Source of the DNA: Callorhinchus milii
Taxonomy: Eukaryota
Assembly: GCF_018977255.1 (NCBI RefSeq)
Contig: NW_024704742.1
Span: 108,998,001 to 109,062,000 of the forward strand
Reading direction: 5' to 3'
DNA: 64,000 nucleotides
Of this stretch, positions 3,142 through 59,998 are shown one piece after another; position 1 is the first letter of the stretch; every line of letters starts with the position of its first letter. Below the pieces are notes generated by a model. That model did not search any database and had not been told where the DNA came from. It saw only the letters and a list, made by a program, of their open reading frames with translations. Position numbers and translations under genes: made by a program.

Positions 3142-3869
3142 GTTGGTAACCATATTTTTCAAGTAGTCCACATCTTGAGTCCTTTTTGTTCATTTTTATC
3201 AGTTTGAAATTAAAATTCCTCTTGGAATTTTAATTTACTGGATATTTTCAACTGTCCTGATAAGATGCATAAGATATTTTGGAATAAAATAATCACTGCC
3301 TGTCATTGCAATATAGTGGTTTCTGTGGAGTTATCAACATTTGGACTGAACAAATAATTTTAAGTGTTAAATAAGATTGACATACACAAAAATGCACATT
3401 TTGTTCCATGTGTATCATTGCTTCTCATTCTTGATTGTATCCCATTGGCATTCTTTGTTTTAATAGAGGAGAAATAAAGGACATGGATCCCACCTCAAAT
3501 ACTTCTTGCAAGCCTATTTCACACATCAATAATAACTATAGATATAAAAGTAAGAACACATTCACATTTCTGTGAGCAAGAATTGCAGCTCAATGCTAGG
3601 ATTATGTTCAATGTGTACTTGGAACTGGGTAACCCTAACTGACTAATCCACAACTTTCAGGCATTCCTCCACTCCCCCATTTCCATTCTTTATGCATTAA
3701 TCAGCTATCCCAACCTTGGAGGGGAAAAAGATGATGACCAGACCCAACCTTCTCAGCCACACGATCCCCTGCAACACTTCTGCTTTAAGAAAGAAAGGTT
3801 CTTTTCAAACTAATGCTCGCATTAATGTTTTGTGTAAAACTCACATTCTTTTCATTTTTGTATCTACAG

Positions 3870-3986
3870 AACAGCCCCAACTATCATGAAGAGAAACGTA
3901 GGTGTGAATACCTGCACAAGAAACTGGCTCACATTAAGAGACTAATAGCAGATTATGATCGGCAGCGGCAACAATCATGGCATTAG
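3870..3986 (+). CDS. ELL2: ELL2 terminal coding exon
   Basis: Polypyrimidine tract + ctacAG; NSPNYHEEKRRCEYLHKKLAHIKRLIADYDRQRQQSWH*, the ELL-family C-terminus; adjacency to GLRX/RHOBTB3 favours the ELL2 paralogue. Confidence 0.92.
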   Translation, partial: NSPNYHEEKRRCEYLHKKLAHIKRLIADYDRQRQQSWH

Positions 3987-14160: not shown

Positions 14161-14906
14161 CGAATTACACTTAAATTACAATCTCTGATAATTTGGACGC
14201 TGACCTGGACCAACACAATTGACCTTGTGGTCTAAACCGAAACATTTTAAGAAACGTGGAAAATCAGTTTTCGAATTAAGACTGAATTAAAACATTTCCA
14301 AAATTCGACATGATCTTGAACTTCAAGGTAAATATTAAATGTACTGTATCTAAAATGTCAGACCACTTGCTGGGTTACTGAAAATACGTTGCTGCTATCT
14401 AGTGGCTGACATTTTGCAATACAAGTCCATGTTGGTTTCAACAGCCTCACTTTTCATTCTCTCTCTTCCCCCTCTCCCCTCCCTCACCCAGACATTGGAT
14501 TAAACTGATTTTTTTACAAATATACTCTCCTTCACTTTCCCCATATACCACCCACCCCAGGACATATTTTTAAATATACAGCATAAAGTGGTGGGGGAAA
14601 ACCCCACCAGCCCCTAAGAACTCCCCAGCAGTAATTTCAAAATTCCTCACCAATAAATTGCCCTTCCATAATATAATAATAATAAATTCTGTTTAAAATG
14701 GCAATCACTATTTAGGCAGTTTTTACAGAATTTTAGGAAAAATTTTATAAAATATTTAACAATGAAAGACATTGTATGATGGTTACTTATTAGATTCCTT
14801 ATTTCATCTTATTTCAATCATTCTAAGGTTTGAAATATACAAGAAGCATTTCTACAGATGAAGCATTGTTTCATCTGTAGAAATGTTCCCCTTAGTTTGC
14901 TCATGC

Positions 14907-14908
<2 letters not shown>

Positions 14909-14937
<29 letters not shown>

Positions 14938-15242
14938 CCTTGCATTTGATATAGCGCTTTTCACGTCAGGAGGACGTCCCAAAGCGCTTCACAGAACACA
15001 CTGTAAAGTGAATTGACTGTATATTTGTGGGCGAATGCGGCAGCCAATTGCGCACAGCAATGTCCCACAAACAGTCGTAGATTGAAAATGACCAATTTAA
15101 TTATTGTTTTTGTTTTTTGGAGGGATTATTATTAGGCGTGTGGAGTAAGGAAACTTGCCCAAGGTTTTGCCCTGCCTGGAATTGAACTCGGGTCTCTCAC
15201 TTGCAAAGCGAGTGCTCTAACCACTGAGCTACAGGACTCCAC
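14909..15242 (-). mobile_element. Young full-length tRNA-headed SINE
   Basis: Minus strand reads gtggagtcctgtagctcagtggttagagcactcg (A box)...gagttcaattcc (B box), Deu core, L2-like tail and (att)n. Confidence 0.93.
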
Positions 15243-16922
15243 GTCCACACATATACACACTGTGTTCCCCTTAACTTGCTCATGTATATACAGTGTGTTC
15301 CCCTTAGTTTGCTCATGTATATACACTGTGTTCCACTTAGTTTGCTCATGTATATACACTTGTGTTCCCCTTAGTTTGCTCATGTATATACACTGTGTTC
15401 CCCTTAGTTTGCTCATATACACACAGTGTGTTCCCCTTAGCTTGCTCATGTATATACACTGTGTTCCCCTTAGTTTGCTCATGTATATACACTGTGTTCC
15501 CCTTAGTTTGCTCATATATACACAGTGTGTTCCCCTTAGTTTGCTCATGTATATACAGTGTGTTCCACTTAGTTTGCTCATGTATATACAGTGTGTTCCC
15601 CTTAGTTTGCTTATGTATATACAGTGTGTTCCCCTTAGTTTGCTTATGTATATACAGTGTGTTCCACTTAGTTTGCTCATGTATATACAGTGTGTTCCAC
15701 TTAGTTTGCTCATGTATATACAGTGTGTTCCCCTTAGTTTCCTAGTGTATATACACTGTGTTCCCCTTAGCTTGCTCATGTATATACACTGTGTTCCCCT
15801 TAGTTTGCTTATGTATATACACTGTGTTCCCCTTAGTTTGCTCATGTATATACACTTGTGTTCCCCTTAGTTTGCTCATGTATATACACTGTGTTCCCGT
15901 TAGTTTGCTCATGTATATACACTGTGTTCCCCTTAGTTTGCTCGTGTATATACACTGTGTTCCCCTTAGTTTGCTCATGTATATACACTGTGTTCCCCTT
16001 AGCGTGCTCATGTATATACACTGTGTTCCCCTTAGTTTGCTCATGTATATACAGTGTGTTCCCCTTAGTTTGCTCATGTATATACACTTGTGTTCCCCTT
16101 AGTTTGCTCGTGTATATACACTGTGTTCCCCTTAGTTTGCTCATGTATATACACTGTGTTCCCCTTAGTTTGCTCATGTATATACAGTGTGTTCCCCTTA
16201 GTTTGCTCATGTATATACACTGTGATCCCCTTAGTTTGCTTATGTATATACACTGTGTTCCCCTTACTTTGCTCATGTATATACACTTGTGTTCCCCTTA
16301 GTTTGCTCATGTATATACGGTGTGTTCCCCTTAGTTTGCTTATGTATATACAGTGTGTTCCCCTTAGTTTGCTTGTGTGTACACACTGTGATCCCCTTAG
16401 TTTGCTTATGTATATACACTGTGTTCCCCTTAGTTTGCTCATGTATATACACTTGTGTTCCCCTTAGTTTGCTCATGTATATACAATGTGTTCCCCTTAG
16501 TTTGCTCGTGTATATACAGTGTGTTCCCCTTAGTTTGCTTATGTATATACAGTGTGTTCCCCTTAGTTTGTTCATGTATATACACTGTGTTCCCCTTAGT
16601 TTGCTCATGTATATACAATGTGTTCCTTTTAGTTTGCTCATGTATATACAGTGTGTTCCCCTTAGTTTGCTCGTGTGTACACACTCTGTTCCCCTTAGTT
16701 TGCTCATGTATATACAGTGTGTTCCCCTTAGTTTGCTCATGTATATACAGTGTGTTCCCCTTAGTTTGCTTGTGTATATACACTGTGTTCCCCTTAGTTT
16801 ACTCATGTATACACACACTGTGTTCCCCTTAGCGTGCTCATGTATATACACTGTCCCCCCCTTAATTTGCTTATGTATATACACTGTGTTCCCCTTAGTT
16901 TGCTCATGTATATACAGTGTGT

Positions 16923-17234
16923 TAATAATCCTTGCATTTGGTATAGCGCTTTTCACGTCAGGAGGACGTCCCAAAGCGCTTCACAGAACACACTGTAAAG
17001 TGAATTGACTGTATATTTGTGGGCGAACGCGGCAGCCAATTGCGCACATCAATGTCCCACAAACAGTCGTAGATTGAAAATGACCAATTTAATTATTGTT
17101 TTTGTTTTTTGGAGGGATTATTATTAGGCGTGTGGAGTAAGGAAACTTGCCCAAGGTTTTGCCCTGCCTGGAATTGAACTCGGGTCTCTCACTTGCAAAG
17201 CGAGTGCTCTAACCACTGAGCTACAGGACTCCAC
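16923..17234 (-). mobile_element. Duplicate of the 14909-15242 SINE
   Basis: Nearly identical (3 substitutions seen) with the same right-hand flank gtccacacatatacac. Confidence 0.93.
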
Positions 17235-18595
17235 GTCCACACATATACACACTGTGTTCCCCTTAACTTGCTCATGTATATACAGTGTGTTCCCCTTAGT
17301 TTGCTCATGTATATACACTGTGTTCCACTTAGTTTGCTCATGTATATACACTGTGTTCCCCTTAGTTTGCTCATATACACACAGTGTGTTCCCCTTAGTT
17401 TGCTCATGTATATACAGTGTGTTCCACTTAGTTTGCTCATGTATATACAGTGTGTTCCCGTTAGTTTGCTCATGTATATACAGTGTGTTCCCCTTAGTTT
17501 GCTCATGTATATACACTGTGTTCCCCTTAGTTTGCTCATGTATTTACAGTGTGTTCCCCTTAGTTTGCTCGTGTGTACACACTCTGTTCCTCTTAGTTTG
17601 CTCGTGTATATACACTCTGTTCCCCTTAGTTTGTTTGTGTATATACACTGTGTTCCCCTTAGTTTACTCATGTATACACACACTGTGTTCCCCTTAGCGT
17701 GCTCATGTATATACACTGTCCCCCCCCTTAGTTTGCTCATGTATATACACTTGTGTTCCCCTTGTTTTGCTCATGAATTTACAGTGTTTTCCCCTTAGTT
17801 TGCTCATGTATATACAAACTGTGTTCCCCTTAGTTTGCTCATGTATATACAGTGTGTTCCCCTTAGTTTGCTCGTGTGTACACACTCTGTTTCCCTTAGT
17901 TTGCTCATGTATATAGTGTGTTCCCCTCAGTTTGCTCGGGTGTACACACTGTGCTCCTCAGTTTGCTCGTGTGTACACACTGTGCTCCCCAGTTTGCTCG
18001 TGTGTACACTGTGCTCCCCTCAGTTTGCTCGTGTGTACACACTGTGCTCCCCAGTTTGCTCGTGGGTACACACTGTGCTCCCCAGTTTGCTCGTGTGTAC
18101 ACACTATGCTCCCCAGTTTGCTCATGTGTACACACTGTGCTCCCCCCAGTTTGCTCGTGTGTACACACTGTGCTCCCCTCAGTTTGCTCGTGTGTACACA
18201 CTGTGCTCCCCTCAGTTTGCTCGTGTGTACACACTGTGCTCCCCAGTTTGCTCGTGTGTACACACTGTGCTCCCCAGTTTGCTCGTGTGTACACACTGTG
18301 CTCCCCTCAGTTTGCTCGTGTGTACACACTGTGCTCCCCAGTTTGCTCGTGTGTACACACTGTGCTCCCCAGTTTGCTCGTGTGTACACACTGTGCTCCC
18401 CTCAGTTTGCTCGTGTGTACACACTGTGCTCCCCAGTTTGCTCGTGTGTACACACTGTGCTCCCCTCAGTTTGCTCGTGTGTACACACTGCGCTCCCCAG
18501 TTTGCTCGTGTGTACACACTGCGCTCCCCAGTTTGCTCGTGTGTACACACTGCGCTCCCCAGTTTGCTCGTGTGTACACACTGCGCTCCCCTCAG

Positions 18596-18729
18596 TCTGA
18601 TTCCGGTAGGTTGAACAGGAAGCTTCACAGCTTCAGACTCCTCCTCCCAGTGTGTGTGTGTGTGAGGGCAGTGGGAGGTTGTGACGTGTGCTGTGTCATT
18701 GCCCGAGAGAGCAGAAGAAGAGGGAAGGA
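18596..18729 (+). promoter_or_regulatory. GLRX: GLRX proximal promoter / 5'UTR
   Basis: Only ~135 nt of unique sequence between array and ATG; ETS-like ttccgg (18601) and caggaag (18616), (TG)n, TGACGTG (18682-18688, CRE/UPRE/HRE-like); no obvious TATA. Confidence 0.55.
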
Positions 18730-18936
18730 ATGGCCCAGCAATTTGTAGAGAGTAGAATCTCTTTCGATAAAGTAGTCCTTTTCATTAAACCTACGTGTCC
18801 TTTCTGCATATCAGCGCAGAAGGTGCTGAATAAATACCAGTTCAAGGCTGGGCGACTGCAGATCCATGACATAACCAGCCACCCCGAGGCAAGCAGTGTG
18901 CAGGATTATTTACAGCAAAAAACAGGAGCCCGGACG
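18730..18936 (+). CDS. GLRX: Glutaredoxin-1 coding exon 1
   Basis: gaaATGG; MAQQFVESRISFDKVVLFIKPTCPFC...QDYLQQKTGART; donor ACG|GTGAGT, phase 0. Confidence 0.97.
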
Positions 18937-19280
18937 GTGAGTTCGTCTTTAATACTATTTCATCCTCAACCCACATTATTGCTATTAACTTGTGCGCTCT
19001 CTGACGCTGCTCTTGTGCTCTGTGTGCCCCGGGGATGGCACAGTGTTTCAGATCTCTGGCAAATGTTGCCCATGTTTTCACGTGCCTTCAATTGGTTTTA
19101 TATTTTTGAATCACAGCAATCCTTACAATAGTCTCCATAAAGCCTCCTCCTTCATTCACTGAGGGTCACGAAAGGCTGGTGGGGAGGATAGAGAGGGTTT
19201 GGGGGGGCAGTTACATCAGTTACATAATTCCGAAAAATCCTGTTTTAACTCCACCTACTGGTAACTTGGTAAGCTTTAAA

Positions 19281-19605
19281 TAATAATAATAATAATAATA
19301 ATAATCCTTGCATTTGATATAGCGCTTTTCACGTCGGGAGGACGTCCCAAAGCGCTTTACAGAACACTCTGTAAAGTAAATTGACTGTATATTTGTGGGC
19401 GAACGCGGCAGCCAATTGCGCACAGCAGTGTCCCACAAACAGTCGGGGATTGAAGTGACTAATTTATTATTGGTTTTTTTGGAGGAAGGATTATTATTAT
19501 TAGGTGTGTGGAGTAAGGAAACTTGCTCAAGGTTGCGCCCTGCCGGGAATTGAACTCAGGTCTCTCGCTTGCGAGTGCTCTAACCGCTGAGCTGTAGGAC
19601 TCCAC
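19281..19605 (-). mobile_element. Young tRNA-headed SINE in GLRX intron 1
   Basis: Same family as 14909-15242. Confidence 0.9.
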
Positions 19606-19984
19606 GAGTTGGTTACTGCCCCAGCAGTGATGGTGCTTTATTACTCCTCTTCCAGATAGATACCCATCATCAATCATAATGTTAATAATCTTTGCATTTT
19701 TTGATATAGTGCCTTATCACATCTTTGATTAATTTCTCCCCTCCCCTTTCTTTTCTTTCCTAATGTCTCTTTAAGGCACTCTATTTTAACACCACCTACT
19801 GGGGAATAGTTTAACAGATGCTGGTCACTCACTGGTTAATTGTCCAAGTGACAGTACGTGTATGTGATCATTGATGGAAAATGTTGGTTAAGTTATTTAA
19901 TTGTAAGGATTCTTAGAGTTGAACCCAATCCTACCCTCAGCTCTGCACAAAACTACCCCTCCAGTAATTTGATATGGATCCACT

Positions 19985-22458: not shown

Positions 22459-22569
22459 GTTCCCCGTGTCTTCATCGGGGAGAAATGTATCGGAGGTGGT
22501 TCAGATGTTGAGCAGCTGGAACGCAGTGGAAAGCTTAAAGACATGCTGCATAACATAGCTGCCATATGA
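22459..22569 (+). CDS. GLRX: Glutaredoxin-1 coding exon 2
   Basis: ttgtAG|VPRVFIGEKCIGGGSDVEQLERSGKLKDMLHNIAAI*; completes the TVP and GG motifs; 105 aa in total; a donor CAG|GTAAA follows at 22575/22576. Confidence 0.97.
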   Translation, partial: VPRVFIGEKCIGGGSDVEQLERSGKLKDMLHNIAAI

Positions 22570-22766
22570 CACCAGGTAAAATATAAATTGCTGTGTTGAG
22601 ATTTCCTGAGCACGTAGAAAGATGGGGCTCATATCCTTCATTAACAAATTGTCGAGGGATATTTGTGGACAAATTCAATTCCTAAGGAGTCCTATTGCGT
22701 ATTGAATCCATTCCAAACCAACCTACTGAAGATCTTTATGGGTTTGACTGTAAGGGTTCTAGAGTT

Positions 22767-35899: not shown

Positions 35900-36224
35900 G
35901 TGGAGTCCTGTAGCTCAGTGGTTAGAGCACTCGCTTTGCAAGTGAGAGACCTGAGTTCAATTCCAGGCAGGGCGAAACCTTGGGCAAGTTTCCTTACTCC
36001 ACACGCCTAATAATAATCCCTCCAAAAAACCAAAAACAATAATTAAATTGGTCATTTTCAATCTACGACTGTTTGTGGGACATTGCTGTGCGCAATTGGC
36101 TGCCGCGTTTGCCCACAAATATACAGTCAATTCACTTTACAGTGTGTTCTGTGAAGCGCTTTGGGACGTCCTCCCGATGTGAAAAGCGCTATATCAAATG
36201 CAAGGATTATTATTATTATTATTA
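35900..36224 (+). mobile_element. Young full-length tRNA-headed SINE
   Basis: Near-identical to the 14909 copy; ends ~67 nt from an RHOBTB3 donor site. Confidence 0.93.
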
Positions 36225-36291
36225 TAGAATGGCCACCTTGTTATTTACACCTCAACCTCTAGCCTGCATCTCTACAGAATTGTTTCCTTAC

Positions 36292-36465
36292 CTGTGCAGC
36301 AGGCATCAGTGTACAGATACTCCAAGAAAGAGAGGAAGGTTTCCTTGGAAACCCCATGAATAGGCACCAGGCAGGCTTTTGTTTCAGCATAGTTACCATT
36401 GAACATTGCAGCCATTACCTCGCAGCGAGCTACCAGGACTGCTCTGTGAGCATGCACCACCGTAC
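36292..36465 (-). CDS. RHOBTB3: RHOBTB3 coding exon (174 nt), second BTB domain
   Basis: (G)TVVHAHRAVLVARCEVMAAMFNGNYAE...FLEYLYTDACCT; phase 1/1. Confidence 0.97.
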
Positions 36466-36499
36466 CTTCGAGAGACAAAACATGGATTTATTCAGGATT

Positions 36500-42925: not shown

Positions 42926-43534
42926 CCACAAATTGACCATTGGACCTAACCAACCGCACTGTAACAAGGTTCCTCTGAATACCTAACCCAAGCCATAAAT
43001 AGAGTTCCTGTGGGTCAGGGTTTCCACATGTGGTCACTAGCAGGAATTACTGTCTGCAATCTCCTGTCACAAACAGCATTTTTTCAAACCCAACAAAGAG
43101 AGTTTGATAATTTTTCTGACTCAGCTCAATGAACAGACATAAGGTAAACACAATGGACCCAAATTTCACCTATTCTTAAACCTTGGAAGACCATTTTGAT
43201 TGCACAGAATGGTGGAAAAGTCTTCAATTCGGGCTTAATTTAGCATCTGCACAAAATATACAAAATACACAGTCAATTCACTTTACAGTGTATTCTGTGA
43301 AACGTTTTGAGACATCTCGAAGACGTGATAAGGCATTATATCAAATGCAAGGATTATTATTATTATCTGTTTTTAGTGTTAGTAAAAATGGGAGTGTTTA
43401 GACAATGCAAAACAACAGCAACAATACATTTGTATAACACCTTTCACGTTGAAGGACGTCCCAAGGCGCTGTGACGCCCACACTCAATATTTTTGATATT
43501 GTTTCTTAAGTGCTCACAGGTACAGTTCACATAC

Positions 43535-43900
43535 CTGTGTAAATGAACTTCAAGATCTCTGGGTAGCTGGCACACAGCAGCGAGTCTCTAATGATAACTC
43601 TTATAGGGTGTCTGTTATAATGTAGATCTTGGTTAGGAGCCAGCTTAATGTCCTTTGGGTCTGTGACAAACAGATCGAGAGTGCTTCTTCCTGAAGAGTC
43701 ATCGAGTTCACAGGCATTCGCCACACCAAACAGGAACATAAAAACCTGGCTCACTGTGCACAGCACAACCCTATGAGCTCTGGCCACTTCTTGTCCACCT
43801 TTGCAACAAAATGCCACATCTGCACACTGAGAGCTATAGAAAAGGCCCAATAGGTCACAGTGGTACCGCGAGTCTTCAATCTTCAAACAAGGCAGCTTGA
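43535..43900 (-). CDS. RHOBTB3: RHOBTB3 coding exon (366 nt), first BTB domain
   Basis: KLPCLKIEDSRYHCDL...CADVAF...AHRVVLC...EILKFIYT; phase 1/1. Confidence 0.96.
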
Positions 43901-44752
43901 CTGTGAGAAAAAGACAAACAGGAAAGACAGTTAATGACAAGCATGCTTAAATACCAAAGATAATAGATAACAACTTGTGAGATTTCTAAAGGGAATCCTT
44001 AGTAAGGAATCTTTGGGAAGTTTGATGGGTAGATGAGTGAGACTAATAATAATAAAAATAATAAAAAGCGCTTCACAAGGTTTTACATTAATGTGCAGTG
44101 AATGTGTATTTTGTATGCGAACAAAGCAACTAATTTGCACGCAGAAATATCCTCCACAAGATATGAAGTTAATGACCAATTTTATTTGGGGAATTGTTGC
44201 CTAGAACACTGGAGAAACTCCCTTCTTTATTTGAAATAGTGCCATGAGATCAATAACTTGAAGGCTACCCTGCGTGATGGGCTCTTTATAAATGCAAGTT
44301 GTTGTTGTTGTTTAACAGGCAGATAGAACCTTGGTTTAACATCTCATTTGAAGGACAGCACCTCTAACAATACAGTGAAACCCCAGCAGTGCACTGGATT
44401 GTCAACAACAAATTACATTTATACAGCATCCTTCACATGAGGTAGTATCGAAGAATGCTTAACAGTGGTGGAGTTTGATGCTGTCCCGGGGAGAGAGGGA
44501 TGGTGACCATTGACACGGTCAAAGAGGAAGGTCGTCTTCAGATGCAATCTGAAAACAGGCAAGGAGGAAGCAAGGCACAAACAGTCATGGATTGAATAAA
44601 AGAAAGGCAAAAAAAAAACTACCTTTCTTTCATTCCATCCCTACTACAGACCCATAAGGCAACGGCATTTCACTACTACATCTCCTCATACCTGTTTCTC
44701 TGAGGTGACCCTCTTACCTGGCTCTGTTACTCACTGTCTGATCTCCTCTTAC

Positions 44753-50481: not shown

Positions 50482-50528
50482 TCTCAGCCTTTTGGCTAAG
50501 ATCATTGCAGTATCTGTTCTTATCAGTT
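50482..50528 (+). pseudogene. RNU2: U2 snRNA 5' fragment (about nt 7-54)
   Basis: tctcagccttttggctaagatcattgcagtatctgttcttatcagtt vs U2 tctcggccttttggctaagatcaagtgtagtatctgttcttatcagtt; no Sm site or 3' half. Confidence 0.93.
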
Positions 50529-50681
50529 ACCCCTTGTGGGAGCGGCAGGGAAGGAGATAAAGGCTCGCAGTCCTGTAAAATGACAGCAGAGCCGCGGCTA
50601 GCCCACTAAGCGGGAACAGAACCCTGGCAGGGACGCCCTAGTGATGGGTGGGACCGGACGGGTTTCTGCTGGTAGGTGTGT

Positions 50682-50993
50682 CTGTGACCTGTGGTCACAG
50701 TCTTAAGATATCTACCAAAAGAAGCAGAGGGGAGGTTAGAAGAATTTTTTTCACTCAGCGAGTTGTTCGAATTTGGAATGATCTGCCTGAAAGGGTAGTG
50801 AAGTCCGATTCGATAACAGCTTTTAAGAGAGAACTGGAGAGGTATCTGGGGAAGACGGGTTTGCAGGGTTATGGGGAGAAAGCTGGTGATTGGGGTTAGT
50901 GAAAGTGACTTGCTCTGTCAAAGAGCCGGCACAGACTCGATGGGCCGAATGGCCTCCTTCTGTGCCGTAACATTCTACGAATCTAAAATCTAT
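50682..50993 (+). mobile_element. Young CR1 3' end
   Basis: GHSLKI...RRIFFTQRVVRIWNDLPERVV..FKRELERYL, then gatgggccgaatggcctccttctgtg tail. Confidence 0.92.
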
Positions 50994-53302
50994 GTGTTTG
51001 CGAGGTTCCCAGGTGTGTGTTTGGGTAAACATGTGAGCGTACAGTGCACATCGGGGCACCATCCAAAAGTGGCAACTGCACCTTATGAGGCTGTGTGTGG
51101 GCACGCATATGGATGTAGAGCACACAAGGGCGTTTCTTGACTGTCTTAAAGGGAGCGTCCCAAAAAAATGTGTGCACAACCTGTGTGCTGTGATCCTGTC
51201 TACGCTCCTCACTAAGAGGGGAGGGATAGAGAGGTGGGGTACAAGACCCCATTTGTAACTGTGCCCTGCAAAGGAGGGAGAATTCTGAGGCAGAAAAAAG
51301 CCTTGGTCCCTTCACCAAAGCGCCAAAGTGGAGTGCACAGAGTCAACCCCACCACCCACCCCCCACCCTGCGACAAGGGGCGAGTCTGTTTCATTGTGCA
51401 ACAAAATATGTTGTGTCTTCCTTTCTGTAACGGGTTTGATACTGTCTGAGACAAGCGTAAATATATACCAACACATGAACATATACATTTTGAATAAAAA
51501 ATAAAATAAAAAAAAATTCCTTGGGCTCTGTGCCTGCTAGAAAGATCTCCTTTTGAGATTCACTGTGTATATAACAATAATCCTTGCATTTAACATAGCG
51601 CCTCATCATGTCATTGAGACATCTCAAAGCGCTTCACAGAATATACTATAAAATTAATTGACTGTATATTTTGTATATAGCTCCACAACCGAATCCTCCG
51701 TAATACATTACGAGAAGATTGAGCTCCTGGCAGAAGCTTTACCTCTGACCCGCTGTTGGTTGGGATCGGTTTTGCACTACTTCCAATCTGAAGAGTTTGA
51801 TCCGCCCTCATACAGAGGAAGCAGAGATACTGGAATACAGGACTAGCTTGAATACTTGCTCTACGGGCTCAGGCCGGGCTTGCTTGGTTCAGTCGCTTAA
51901 CTTGCTCAGGTGATTGTGAAAACGGTTGTCTGTAGTGACAACCATCAAACCCGTGAGGAACGCATTTCAGTCTGATTAAGCTCTCAGGGGGTAAGTGTGG
52001 CCTAACCTCGCTCACCAAAAAAATGGATGCTTTGCTGAAGAGAAAAGGGATTGAGAACTAGGGAGGTTGATCACATTAAATCTGTTACAGAGCACTGTAT
52101 TTATGAAACATTGCATTTTCAAATCTGTTATGAAATGTTGTATTTTCATCCAATCATGGGAAGACATAGACTGATAGTTGGAAGATAGACTGACATTTTG
52201 GAACTATTGGCTTTGTTCTGTTCCTATAATACTATTAATAAAATATAGCATAAAATAAATCACCCAAGTGTTTCTGAAAAATAAAGCTAATAATAGCAAA
52301 ATTGAGCTTCTGTTATGAACAATGCAAATGTGCGATATCCCGAGAGACCTTGCACATTACTAAAAATAGCTAAACCGTCAACTCTGAATAGGAAGACAAT
52401 GTGATTACTGCTCAACAAATAAACAAGTATAAATTTTTCAGAAGCCGGAAAAAGTTTCAGTGCACTTTGTGAAGTAAGGCAGGAAGTCAAAATAAGGTGG
52501 ATGTAACCAAATAGCAAGAGGATAAACTAATGCAATGAATTGTTTCATTAATTCCTGTTCTTGTTTACCCCCCAGCTCGGTTGCAAACCCATGACTGTCC
52601 AGCACCTTGGGACTTCCTCCCGATGCGAAAGGCATTATATAATTGCAATTTGTTGTTGTTCTTGCTCTTTGTATTTTAAAGTTGTTTCCGTGACATTTGG
52701 TATCTTTTAGCGTTTGGGCAGAAAAATATAGGTAGACTATCACTTTATATCTTCTGAGTAAGTATGAATCACTAGAGCAGCTAAATTCAATTTTAAAGCG
52801 CCTTTACCTCAACACACAATCAATATGATGACAGAATGGAAGAGTGATAGTAATCAAATAATGTATGTGGTCAAACCTCATAACCAAACATCATGGATAA
52901 ATTTATTCGCTAAATGCAACAATGTTAACCATGTGCATTTACAGGGGTTAAATCACAATAATCCTAAAAACTGGCATTTGATATAAAGACTTTCACATCA
53001 GGCAGACATCTCACAGGATTTATTGTGATGGGTAGTGACTGCGCATTTTGTAGGTAACTACTGAAGCCAATTGGCGCACAGCAATGCCCCAATGTCCCTG
53101 AATATGAACAGGCTCCTTGAACCACATCTGTGCTTACATTTTCTCTCTGTATAATATTTAAATGTCATTAAAAATGCACAGCATCTTCCACTAAGATTCA
53201 TAATGACATTCTTTCCCCTCGACTCCCCTTGCTTCATTTCATAACCTATTTAAATTGACTCTGGACATTGATTTAAACATTGGTAAATGTCATGCCTAGA
53301 AT

Positions 53303-59520: not shown

Positions 59521-59998
59521 GCAATTGCAACTCCAAATACACCACAATTTACATTATATAGCGTCTTTCATGTTGGGAGGATGATTCAAACACCCCCAAC
59601 ACCACCAGATGTGCACCCGAGCTCAGGTGGGAGGCTATGAAGGTGGGGGAAAGATGACCAAAAGCATGAGGTAGATTTCGAGATGTGCCTTGAATGAGGG
59701 AGGGGGGGAGGAGCAAATTAGAGTGCCCCCGGGATGGATTTATACAGAACTCTCAGTGTCTGACACTCTAGAAAGAGCATTAAGGAATATCACAGAATGA
59801 CTGCAGGTTTACCAAGCAATAATCATTGANTTTTTGCCACATAATTCTAGCTTCAGGATATACTACCAGGATATTGATGAAAATATTGACAATTGCGTTA
59901 GAGAAGGTTTCTTGCAACATACAGAAATCAGAGTAAATTCCATACTCGCCCAAAAAGCTTTTTCAGTTATCAGATTGAAACATTAAAGTACTCCTGGA

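Follow-up and report, generated by a model that had tools for sequence, protein, structure and literature searches.

The repeat array in the proximal promoter of GLRX in Callorhinchus milii is a modular, block-structured minisatellite: variants of the unit are grouped into blocks, among which a few converted or intermediate units occur. This arrangement was probably shaped by ordinary amplification and conversion at the locus, and the pattern is explicable without any function. The analysis covered a 64,000-nt stretch of DNA (hereafter the window), the relevant features of which are listed in Table 1.

Table 1. Features of the array and of the adjoining GLRX gene, with positions within the window.
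Feature	Positions	Strand	Evidence or remark
Inverted repeat, 39 nt, 17-bp arms; right arm continues into the 5′ edge of the array	14847..14885	.	Self-BLAST
Partial AT-type unit (25 nt), 5′ edge of the array	14884..14908	+	
SINE copy 1: tRNA-Ala head (15167-15238), body, (TTA)n tail	14909..15242	-	ARAGORN, Rfam tRNA
Distal block A: 49 full AT-type units plus partial units	15243..16922	+	
SINE copy 2, duplicate of copy 1	16923..17234	-	
Distal block B: 20 full AT-type units	17235..17928	+	Unit code strings, exact matches
Proximal block: 17 GC-type units, 31/33 bp, 95-bp higher-order repeat	17929..18467	+	191-nt exact match at offset 95
Terminal four units, two CpG each, abutting unique promoter DNA	18468..18596	+	
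Unique core promoter and 5′ UTR of GLRX	18597..18729	+	
GLRX coding exon 1	18730..18936	+	ATG 18730, donor GT 18937; RNA-like contigs depart at 18938 with exon-2 letters
Third copy, same SINE family, GLRX intron 1 (89% to copy 1)	19279..19606	-	
GLRX coding exon 2, stop codon included	22459..22569	+	

The repeat runs head-to-tail with a unit of 31/33 bp, for which TRF reported period 33, about 102 nominal copies and a score of 3519 over 15252–18596. The whole array holds 90 full units of 31–35 bp, assigned by block to 69 AT-type, 17 GC-type and four terminal GC-type units, with four intermediate units inside the distal blocks. Unit lengths agree with the initial annotation, which had described a mixture of 31 and 33 bp proximally (14 and seven of 21 units, respectively) and 33 bp with some 34 bp distally (58 and seven of 69 units, the rest being three of 35 bp and one of 31 bp). 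A single CpG is present in 16 of the 17 units of the proximal block, and block B is a colinear, shortened copy of block A, to which the most decayed units at the junction are added. The unit contains a 12-bp palindrome, and inter-unit hairpins were found in the proximal units (z −5.2) and in one distal pair (z −4.2); one distal three-unit stretch folded no more stably than shuffles (z −1.2). The inverted repeat at the 5′ edge folds at −16.1 kcal/mol, a stability equalled by 0 of 200 shuffles. Elsewhere in the 64-kb window the unit was not found, the best outside match being 12 nt, and derivation from a dispersed repeat was rejected on that ground. Open reading frames in the array were discarded as protein-coding candidates, their translations being periodic like the repeat, and the search for RNA families within the array returned only four SINE tRNA heads from Rfam. 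Published work on this locus was absent among the matches listed, which came mainly from open-access texts.

The array had been described as one continuous 3.7-kb tract, but 646 of the 3713 nt of the span (17%) belong to two SINE copies, which split it. Both inserts are tRNA-derived, with a tRNA-Ala head, a (TTA)n tail and dispersed copies, and the family has 24 matches of at least 80 nt in the window. Copy 1 (11 CpG) lies within a unit, has a candidate 6-nt target duplication and is 97.8% identical to a copy at 35900–36212. Copy 2 (12 CpG), with its tail reduced to two TTA, is 99% identical to copy 1 (three differences in 317 nt); its right-hand junction and the units after it match those of copy 1, with sequence identical over 303 nt at offset 1992 across SINE and units. 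Judged from these matches, the second copy arose by a 1,992-bp duplication of SINE plus units. CpG survival in the SINEs was dropped as an argument against methylation, the copies being too young (one CpG change among the three differences); it shows only that the six block-defining changes described below are older than the insertion.

It is very unlikely that SINE copy 2 and block B are an assembly artefact in which two alleles were placed in tandem. Block B could pass for a shortened allele of block A, from which it differs by about 1%, and it lies in the distal 3.6 kb, beyond the part covered by reads. However, the left joint of SINE copy 2 is a new unit-to-tail junction, absent at copy 1 and without the unique flank of the latter, and overlapping alleles would not yield such a joint. 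Neither the block switch nor the terminal units rely on this segment.

The gene 3′ of the array is glutaredoxin-1 (GLRX; Pfam PF00462, E 8.8e-10), found in an ELL2–GLRX–RHOBTB3-like neighbourhood. Its product matches human/pig thioltransferase at E 4e-19 and is 100% identical to a protein labelled Callorhinchus milii glutaredoxin-1. A donor-like GT is found 6 nt past the stop codon of exon 2, where contigs have loose ends. RNA-like contigs from two studies end at 18649 and 18650, past which DNA-like contigs continue, and this weak hint places the likely start of GLRX at about 18649–18650. The array abuts the promoter as initially proposed, its end at 18596 lying 133 nt 5′ of the ATG (~135 nt had been given) and ~52 nt 5′ of the likely start, which is itself a weak hint from contigs. 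In the motif scan, the putative start fell on what we take to be an initiator-like hexamer, and a presumed ARE-like core was located on the minus strand of the 5′ region at 18690–18699. A short (GT)n follows the putative start.

Along the array, units switch abruptly at 17929, with 69 AT-type units on the far side and 21 GC-type units on the promoter side. The initial annotation had reported a C/G-to-T/A gradient, but one step at this position fits better (R2 0.87, BIC −359) than a linear trend (R2 0.57, BIC −256). Comparison of the units by position upheld a non-random order, the observed step being reached in 0 of 2000 permutations, in the form of a step and not of a slope. Taken singly, neither distal block shows a significant trend (rho 0.21, p 0.16 for the 49 units of block A; rho 0.36, p 0.12 for the 20 of block B); the pooled 69 distal units gave a weak residual trend (rho 0.28, p 0.02), and block A a weak distance effect (Mantel rho 0.12, p 0.016). 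Private differences number 2.33 per unit at 17529–17928 and 0.68–1.14 in the far block, and the last 14 units have none; decay is greatest at the block junction. In the minimum spanning tree, the intermediates nest in a single chain with the terminal GC form at one end and the AT form at the other. Outward growth from the promoter, also suggested initially, would as a conveyor place the most decayed units at the far end, whereas decay peaks at the junction. Under the mutation bias of the window, the GC form beside the promoter is more likely to be ancestral.

Six positions separate terminal from distal units, and all are C/T or G/A, as had been claimed for the substitutions in general; the claim fails for the 32 distinct other variants of the distal units, which comprise only eight C>T/G>A changes, together with five in the reverse direction, 15 transversions and four indels. 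Block-defining positions account for 6/19 C/G positions versus 0/14 A/T positions (Fisher p 0.027), and just two of the six are in CpG context. The outcome at these two CpG sites was near one-sided (CA 50 versus TG 3; TG 83 versus CA 0), and change frequencies per column were all-or-none, with six at 0.84–0.99 and thirteen C/G positions at ≤0.16. Because CpG context is limited to two of six sites, the outcomes are nearly one-sided and 13 C/G positions are almost unchanged, about six ancestral mutations appear to have been spread by amplification, not by unit-by-unit deamination. Homogenisation, as first suggested, gains support in the form of block-wise amplification of a few unit types. The claimed proximal concentration of CpG holds among units, the proximal block having 24 of the 62 across the span, but not over the span as a whole, as 23 are in the SINEs.

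A boundary of germline methylation near 17929 or 18468, with outer units deaminating and inner ones protected by the promoter, would also produce losses of CpG away from the gene; distal units do lack the two CpG sites of the terminal unit, and none but the last four units before the start retain the second. About 70% CG methylation has been described for the elephant shark, in which start sites are hypomethylated while SINEs are hypermethylated (PMC5437953), and the remaining four changes lie in CAC, CAG or TGCT contexts, which correspond to non-CG methylation motifs of other vertebrates (PMC7736785). We nevertheless consider such a boundary unlikely, and the proposal that it was the main cause finds no support in the two-in-six share of CpG sites, the one-sided outcomes, the all-or-none columns and the step. 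Changes are not concentrated at CpG, and TpG and CpA decay is neither independent nor graded, as a record of CpG decay would require. Moreover, new CpGs emerged and survive in distal units, and the GLRX promoter region (18501–19000; CpG o/e 0.58, GC 0.50) is a marginal CpG island only. As to the non-CG contexts, CpA is the commonest in the unit regardless (7/19 C/G), and non-CG methylation was ≤0.8–1% in the elephant-shark liver data as reported in PMC5437953. According to PMC7736785, the TGCT methylase Dnmt3ba arose in the actinopterygian ancestor, whereas the host is a chimaera, and Dnmt3ba/TGCT methylation was rejected as a cause.

The 24 runs listed all belong to one organism, leaving no outgroup among them, and polarity was assigned with a rate model for which a SINE consensus of mixed subfamilies was used. 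In the SINE copies of the window, S>W changes are about twice as frequent as W>S changes (224/1510 versus 151/2186), and this mutation bias gives a rough likelihood ratio of ~117 in favour of a GC-type ancestor. Under the model, the GC form is probably ancestral, unless GC-biased conversion acted. In the latter case the AT unit would have come first, and a recombination hotspot centred on the promoter would have fixed A/T-to-G/C changes near the start through GC-biased gene conversion. This reversal is compatible with all six differences being W/S transitions and with the AT-type unit at the 5′ edge, which predates the SINE insertion. PRDM9, moreover, is of doubtful status in the elephant shark, with SSXRD absent and testis expression not found according to the passages of PMC5519329, but its orthologue was scored as complete in the corresponding part of a later paper (10.1101/2021.06.08.447603). 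A clear GC shift is not seen in the SINE of intron 1, which lies 0.65–0.95 kb from the start, with 15 W>S versus 10 S>W against young copies (unpolarised) and 11 versus 8 against the window consensus (small numbers, mixed subfamilies). The model prefers the GC ancestor ~100-fold if conversion bias is absent, and we regard the reverse polarity as improbable.

Contigs of runs X2 and X3, which come from two other animals, contain the joint between array and promoter, and the two proximal unit types are also seen in contigs from other runs. Terminal-unit contigs have 1.1–1.3x the depth of unique contigs in X2 and X3, compared with 3x predicted from the window (contig depth is not a copy number), and X2 has a contig break that the path of the window does not predict. 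Together these provide a weak hint that the terminal block differs between alleles. The RNA-like run X6 contains two 61-nt array contigs, plus intron cover, with none at 18592–18649, which is compatible with DNA carry-over; these contigs were therefore given no weight either way on whether the array is transcribed.

The array might, as first suggested, be a length-variable regulator of GLRX. Specifically, the terminal units could have been kept or amplified for an MTF-1 site (MRE core) in each, the number of which would tune zinc/cadmium induction of the gene, and a single C>T change would abolish the core in all other units. The MRE core, with consensus TGCRCNC (PMC9820605), occurs in 4/90 units (18489, 18520, 18551 and 18582), ~60–165 nt 5′ of the likely start. 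Cadmium raised GLRX up to 2.8-fold in human bronchial cells (PMC13566881), the 33-bp promoter VNTR of TRIB3 offers a precedent (PMC7425993), and the hinted difference of the terminal block between animals would fit. We still find this reading unlikely, as the four cores represent one event that was copied, and a core appears by chance in 980/5000 unit shuffles (20%) and in 41/299 200-nt tiles of the window. Furthermore, the GC-rich 3′ flank of strong MREs is only partly matched in the terminal unit, the cadmium induction was ascribed to NF-kB in PMC13566881, and no MTF-1–GLRX link was found among the matches listed in the literature or in the review passages. Equally little weight is given to a broader proposal, in which the array end would be a working copy-variable metal-response module: a CpG-containing MTF-1 site in the GLRX promoter would have seeded the repeat and been retained only by unmethylated units beside the start, with block boundaries marking the limit of germline methylation or of promoter-directed GC-biased conversion. 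Were it true, the unit types of different alleles could be read for the position of that boundary and for how inducible GLRX is.

In the history by amplification and conversion that we favour, the repeat would have begun from a GC-type sequence on the margin of the GLRX promoter, and one unit lineage would then have gathered about six C>T/G>A changes. Two of these would have come from CpG deamination and two form a mutually compensating pair in the palindrome, so that perhaps five events, not six, were needed. The derived AT unit would have been amplified into the distal blocks prior to the arrival of the SINE; thereafter, SINE and units were duplicated, and the two copies are now unlike in unit number. 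Promoter-side GC-type units would have expanded separately, and recently because the last 14 units are without private changes. The palindromic core, which allows pairing of adjacent units, probably drives slippage and short conversions, and the GC-to-AT polarity would stem from normal mutation bias in a few founder events and would not read out methylation position by position. All six changes run one way, and the CpG-richest units lie directly beside the promoter, which runs counter to amplification and is what a methylation boundary predicts. Human MSY1 and other VNTRs have been described with block structure, hairpin units, switches of boundary and turnover by deletion and duplication (PMC2599865, PMC8327921).

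Block-structured minisatellites beside promoters are already known, and the array as such is of little import. It is, however, a tidy illustration of how about six founder mutations, once amplified, can pass for a methylation gradient. A young SINE and its duplicate serve as two time marks inside the array. Were the terminal units active MTF-1 sites of varying number, they would provide a natural allelic series for metal induction of a redox gene in a cartilaginous fish. Should the GC block turn out to be derived, promoter-directed biased conversion could be tested on a compact locus, in an animal of disputed PRDM9 status.

Among known systems, zebrafish MOSAT is likewise a TGCT-containing tandem repeat, and one block-defining C>T of the array sits in TGCT, but MOSAT is methylated at this motif by Dnmt3ba, an enzyme arising in ray-finned fishes (PMC7736785), and the other TGCT of the unit is intact in 67/69 distal units. 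Human MSY1 (DYF155S1; PMC2599865) shares with the array base-substitution variants in blocks, a hairpin-forming unit, lone converted units within blocks and shifting block boundaries. It differs in being haploid, 75% A+T, of 25 bp without length variants and away from a promoter, whereas the array has units of 31–35 bp, blocks unequal in GC, and an internal SINE insertion plus duplication. Segments with distinct motif composition and small higher-order groups also characterise the human VPS53 (33 bp) and directional WDR7 VNTRs, and internal deletions and duplications are common to the array and the human multi-segment VNTRs (PMC8327921). Clear directionality is rare in that set, which was typed over many long-read alleles, compared with one allele for the elephant-shark array. 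The TRIB3 promoter VNTR (PMC7425993) resembles the array in its ~33-bp unit, proximal-promoter position, transcription-factor-like site and possible copy-number variation, but it is a conserved, reporter-tested element of 1–5 copies, as opposed to 90 units and a predicted motif with a 20% chance rate. Together with the expression/methylation VNTRs (10.1101/2020.12.16.423078), TRIB3 provides the nearest promoter-type parallels.

The span 14884-18596, read in the initial annotation as a single continuous 3.7-kb array, is broken by two SINE copies that account for 646 of its 3713 nt and for 23 of its 62 CpGs. Its 31-35-bp units are of an AT type distally and of a GC type on the promoter side of GLRX.

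Components of the array and exons identified around it
Feature	Position	Strand	Remarks
Occludin/ELL domain exon	3789-3983	+	
Partial unit, 25 nt	start of span 14884-18596		
SINE 1	14909-15242	minus	tRNA-Ala
49 full units	between SINE 1 and SINE 2		
SINE 2	16923-17234		
20 units, then 21 units of the other type	after SINE 2		
GLRX (glutaredoxin-1) exon 1	18730-18936		Pfam Glutaredoxin; mammalian thioltransferases
GLRX exon 2	22459-22569		
BTB exons	36275-36487 and 43530-43946	-	

SINE 1 and SINE 2 differ at three of 317 positions and have their right-hand junction and subsequent units in common, with a 303-nt exact match at an offset of 1992, and the units downstream of SINE 2 are a shortened colinear version of those downstream of SINE 1. 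These few differences, the common junction and the colinear units identify SINE 2, as judged from sequence, as a copy of SINE 1 duplicated with its units and not as a second insertion; the SINE 2 tail is reduced to two triplets at the new junction. SINE 1 shares 97.8% identity with a copy 21 kb distant and is thus young, and the AT-type units flanking it imply that this type predates the insertion. A 39-nt near-perfect inverted repeat (14847-14885; -16.1 kcal/mol, 0/200 shuffles) overlaps the 5' edge of the array and may be the trace of a template switch or of a deletion that trimmed it.

When six diagnostic sites were scored across the 90 full units, one change point, at 17929, outperformed a line (R2 of 0.87 vs 0.57; 0/2000 permutations equal), so that the gradual gradient proposed initially gives way to a step. 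A smaller second step follows at 18468, from which the terminal four units carry an extra CpG. Trends inside block A (15243-16922; p = 0.16) and block B (17235-17928; p = 0.12) were not significant; pooling the two blocks left a weak trend (rho = 0.28, p = 0.02), and a Mantel test gave a weak effect of distance within block A (p = 0.016). The reported C/G-to-T/A polarity is real, all six block differences being C/T or G/A (6/19 C/G positions vs 0/14 A/T positions, p = 0.027), but it rests on at most six events; among variants other than these, 8/32 distinct ones are C>T/G>A, without comparable polarity. The same 13-nt phase recurs at the array start (14884-14896) and end (18584-18596) and holds three of the six diagnostic sites, which could have been present from the outset as differences between a pair of short seed repeats, in place of arising by later mutation.

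Independent decay unit by unit would affect CpG first, yield TpG and CpA in similar numbers and leave a few changes in each of many columns. By context, the diagnostic sites comprise two CpG, three CpA and one CpT; the outcome was CA in 50 units vs TG in three at one CpG, and TG in 83 vs CA in none at the other; and the six columns are altered in 84-99% of distal units, the remaining thirteen C/G columns in at most 16%. Unit-by-unit deamination is contradicted by this CpG share (2/6), the one-sided outcomes and the all-or-none columns, and all three, together with the step, also tell against the array as the record of a methylation boundary. Intermediate units fall into a single nested chain, with the terminal form at one end and the most frequent distal form at the other. 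Private decay peaks at the block junction, at 2.33 per unit; the far block shows 0.68-1.14 per unit, and the last 14 units, within which a 95-bp higher-order repeat is found, show none. Given this junction-peaked profile and the lack of decay in the last 14 units, the array is probably two blocks amplified separately around an older core and not a conveyor from the promoter, as the suggested outward growth had implied.

Two of the six block-defining changes, at unit positions 14 and 17, are partners in a 12-bp palindrome that is intact in both unit types, and the four distal units that have G at the first of these positions all lack T at the other, which suggests templated correction. Folding indicated that neighbouring units can pair via the palindrome (z of -5.2 and -4.2; -1.2 in a third stretch); any repeat whose unit has a palindromic core should fold in this way, and the pairing is no sign of function. 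Such pairing between units might be a source of array instability; unit folding was put forward as an instability mechanism for MSY1 (PMC2599865).

Substitution rates were taken from 24 SINE matches within the window (S>W 224/1510, W>S 151/2186), and they favour a GC over an AT ancestor by a factor of ~117, a rough figure that assumes no conversion bias and uses no outgroup; on this rough reckoning, the GC form is probably ancestral. The PRDM9 of the species is reported to be without SSXRD, with testis expression undetected (PMC5519329), and is tallied as complete in later work (10.1101/2021.06.08.447603). The intron-1 SINE (19279-19606, minus strand) showed no clear GC shift. Because the species is ~70% CG-methylated with hypomethylated start sites (PMC5437953), the two CpG changes may well stem from methylation, which here is a mutation source and no positional record. 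In PMC7736785, the enzyme that methylates TGCT in zebrafish satellites is described as confined to ray-finned fishes.

The gene downstream of the array is identified by sequence match as glutaredoxin-1, exon 1 showing 100% identity to a protein with the label Callorhinchus milii glutaredoxin-1 (one hit, one candidate). It is preceded by an ELL-type exon and followed by BTB exons (112/118 candidate frames scanned), consistent with the ELL2-GLRX-RHOBTB3 order known from human. Further along, a second marginal CpG island-like stretch (50501-51250), largely outside repeats, may be where the BTB gene begins; the single N in the window is at 59830.

Two RNA-like contigs from two studies end at 18649 and 18650, past which DNA-like contigs continue, and both depart from the window at 18938 into exon-2 letters; their ends are a weak hint of a transcription start near 18649-18650 and coincide with an initiator-like hexamer. 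From the end of the array at 18596 it is 52 nt to this likely start and 133 nt to the ATG, in agreement with the closeness to the ATG noted initially. The final hexamer of GC-type units (18591 and proximal units) resembles the one at the likely start, is likewise initiator-like, and is lost from most AT-type units; neither of the two spliced RNA-like contigs begins at a unit-borne copy. The 5' UTR holds an ARE-like core at 18690-18699 (minus strand), beside a CRE-like half site at ~18682; a motif scan found 21 ARE-like cores across the window. A donor-like GT lies 6 nt past the GLRX stop codon (22570-22581). The RNA-like contigs run 255 letters past exon 1, exceeding exon 2; the gene therefore likely has either a third, non-coding exon or an exon 2 that extends further.

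Contigs from four of 24 listed sequencing runs, all of one organism, were compared over 18530-19275 only. The array-promoter joint is present from 18562 in both DNA-like runs, with 1-2 substitutions, and these runs contain short contigs equal to the terminal unit or 1-5 differences off. Terminal-unit contigs had 1.1-1.3x the depth of the unique contig vs 3x predicted by the window, and run X2 has a contig break at a point without a branch in the window's path; since depth does not equal copy number, this is a weak hint that array alleles differ between animals. T>G at 19138, seen in all three covering runs (DNA-like X2 and X3, RNA-like X6), is a window-specific allele or an error, and A>T at 18608, confined to X3, is a promoter variant.

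An MRE core, the MTF-1 site motif as defined in PMC9820605, is found in each of the terminal four units and is removed elsewhere by the CpG change; it arises in 980/5000 unit shuffles and 41/299 window tiles, and the four cores are copies of one event. In one study, cadmium raised human GLRX up to 2.8-fold, which was credited to NF-kB (PMC13566881), and no MTF-1 link to GLRX was found among the papers listed in our literature search or in the available part of the review PMC8102999. As promoter VNTRs can alter expression (PMC7425993; 10.1101/2020.12.16.423078), a role of the array in gene regulation is possible.

No publication on the locus was among those listed in the literature search. In the features tested, the array matches a modular minisatellite and departs from a CpG-decay record, and it behaves like human MSY1, as described in PMC2599865, and like the multi-segment VNTRs of PMC8327921.
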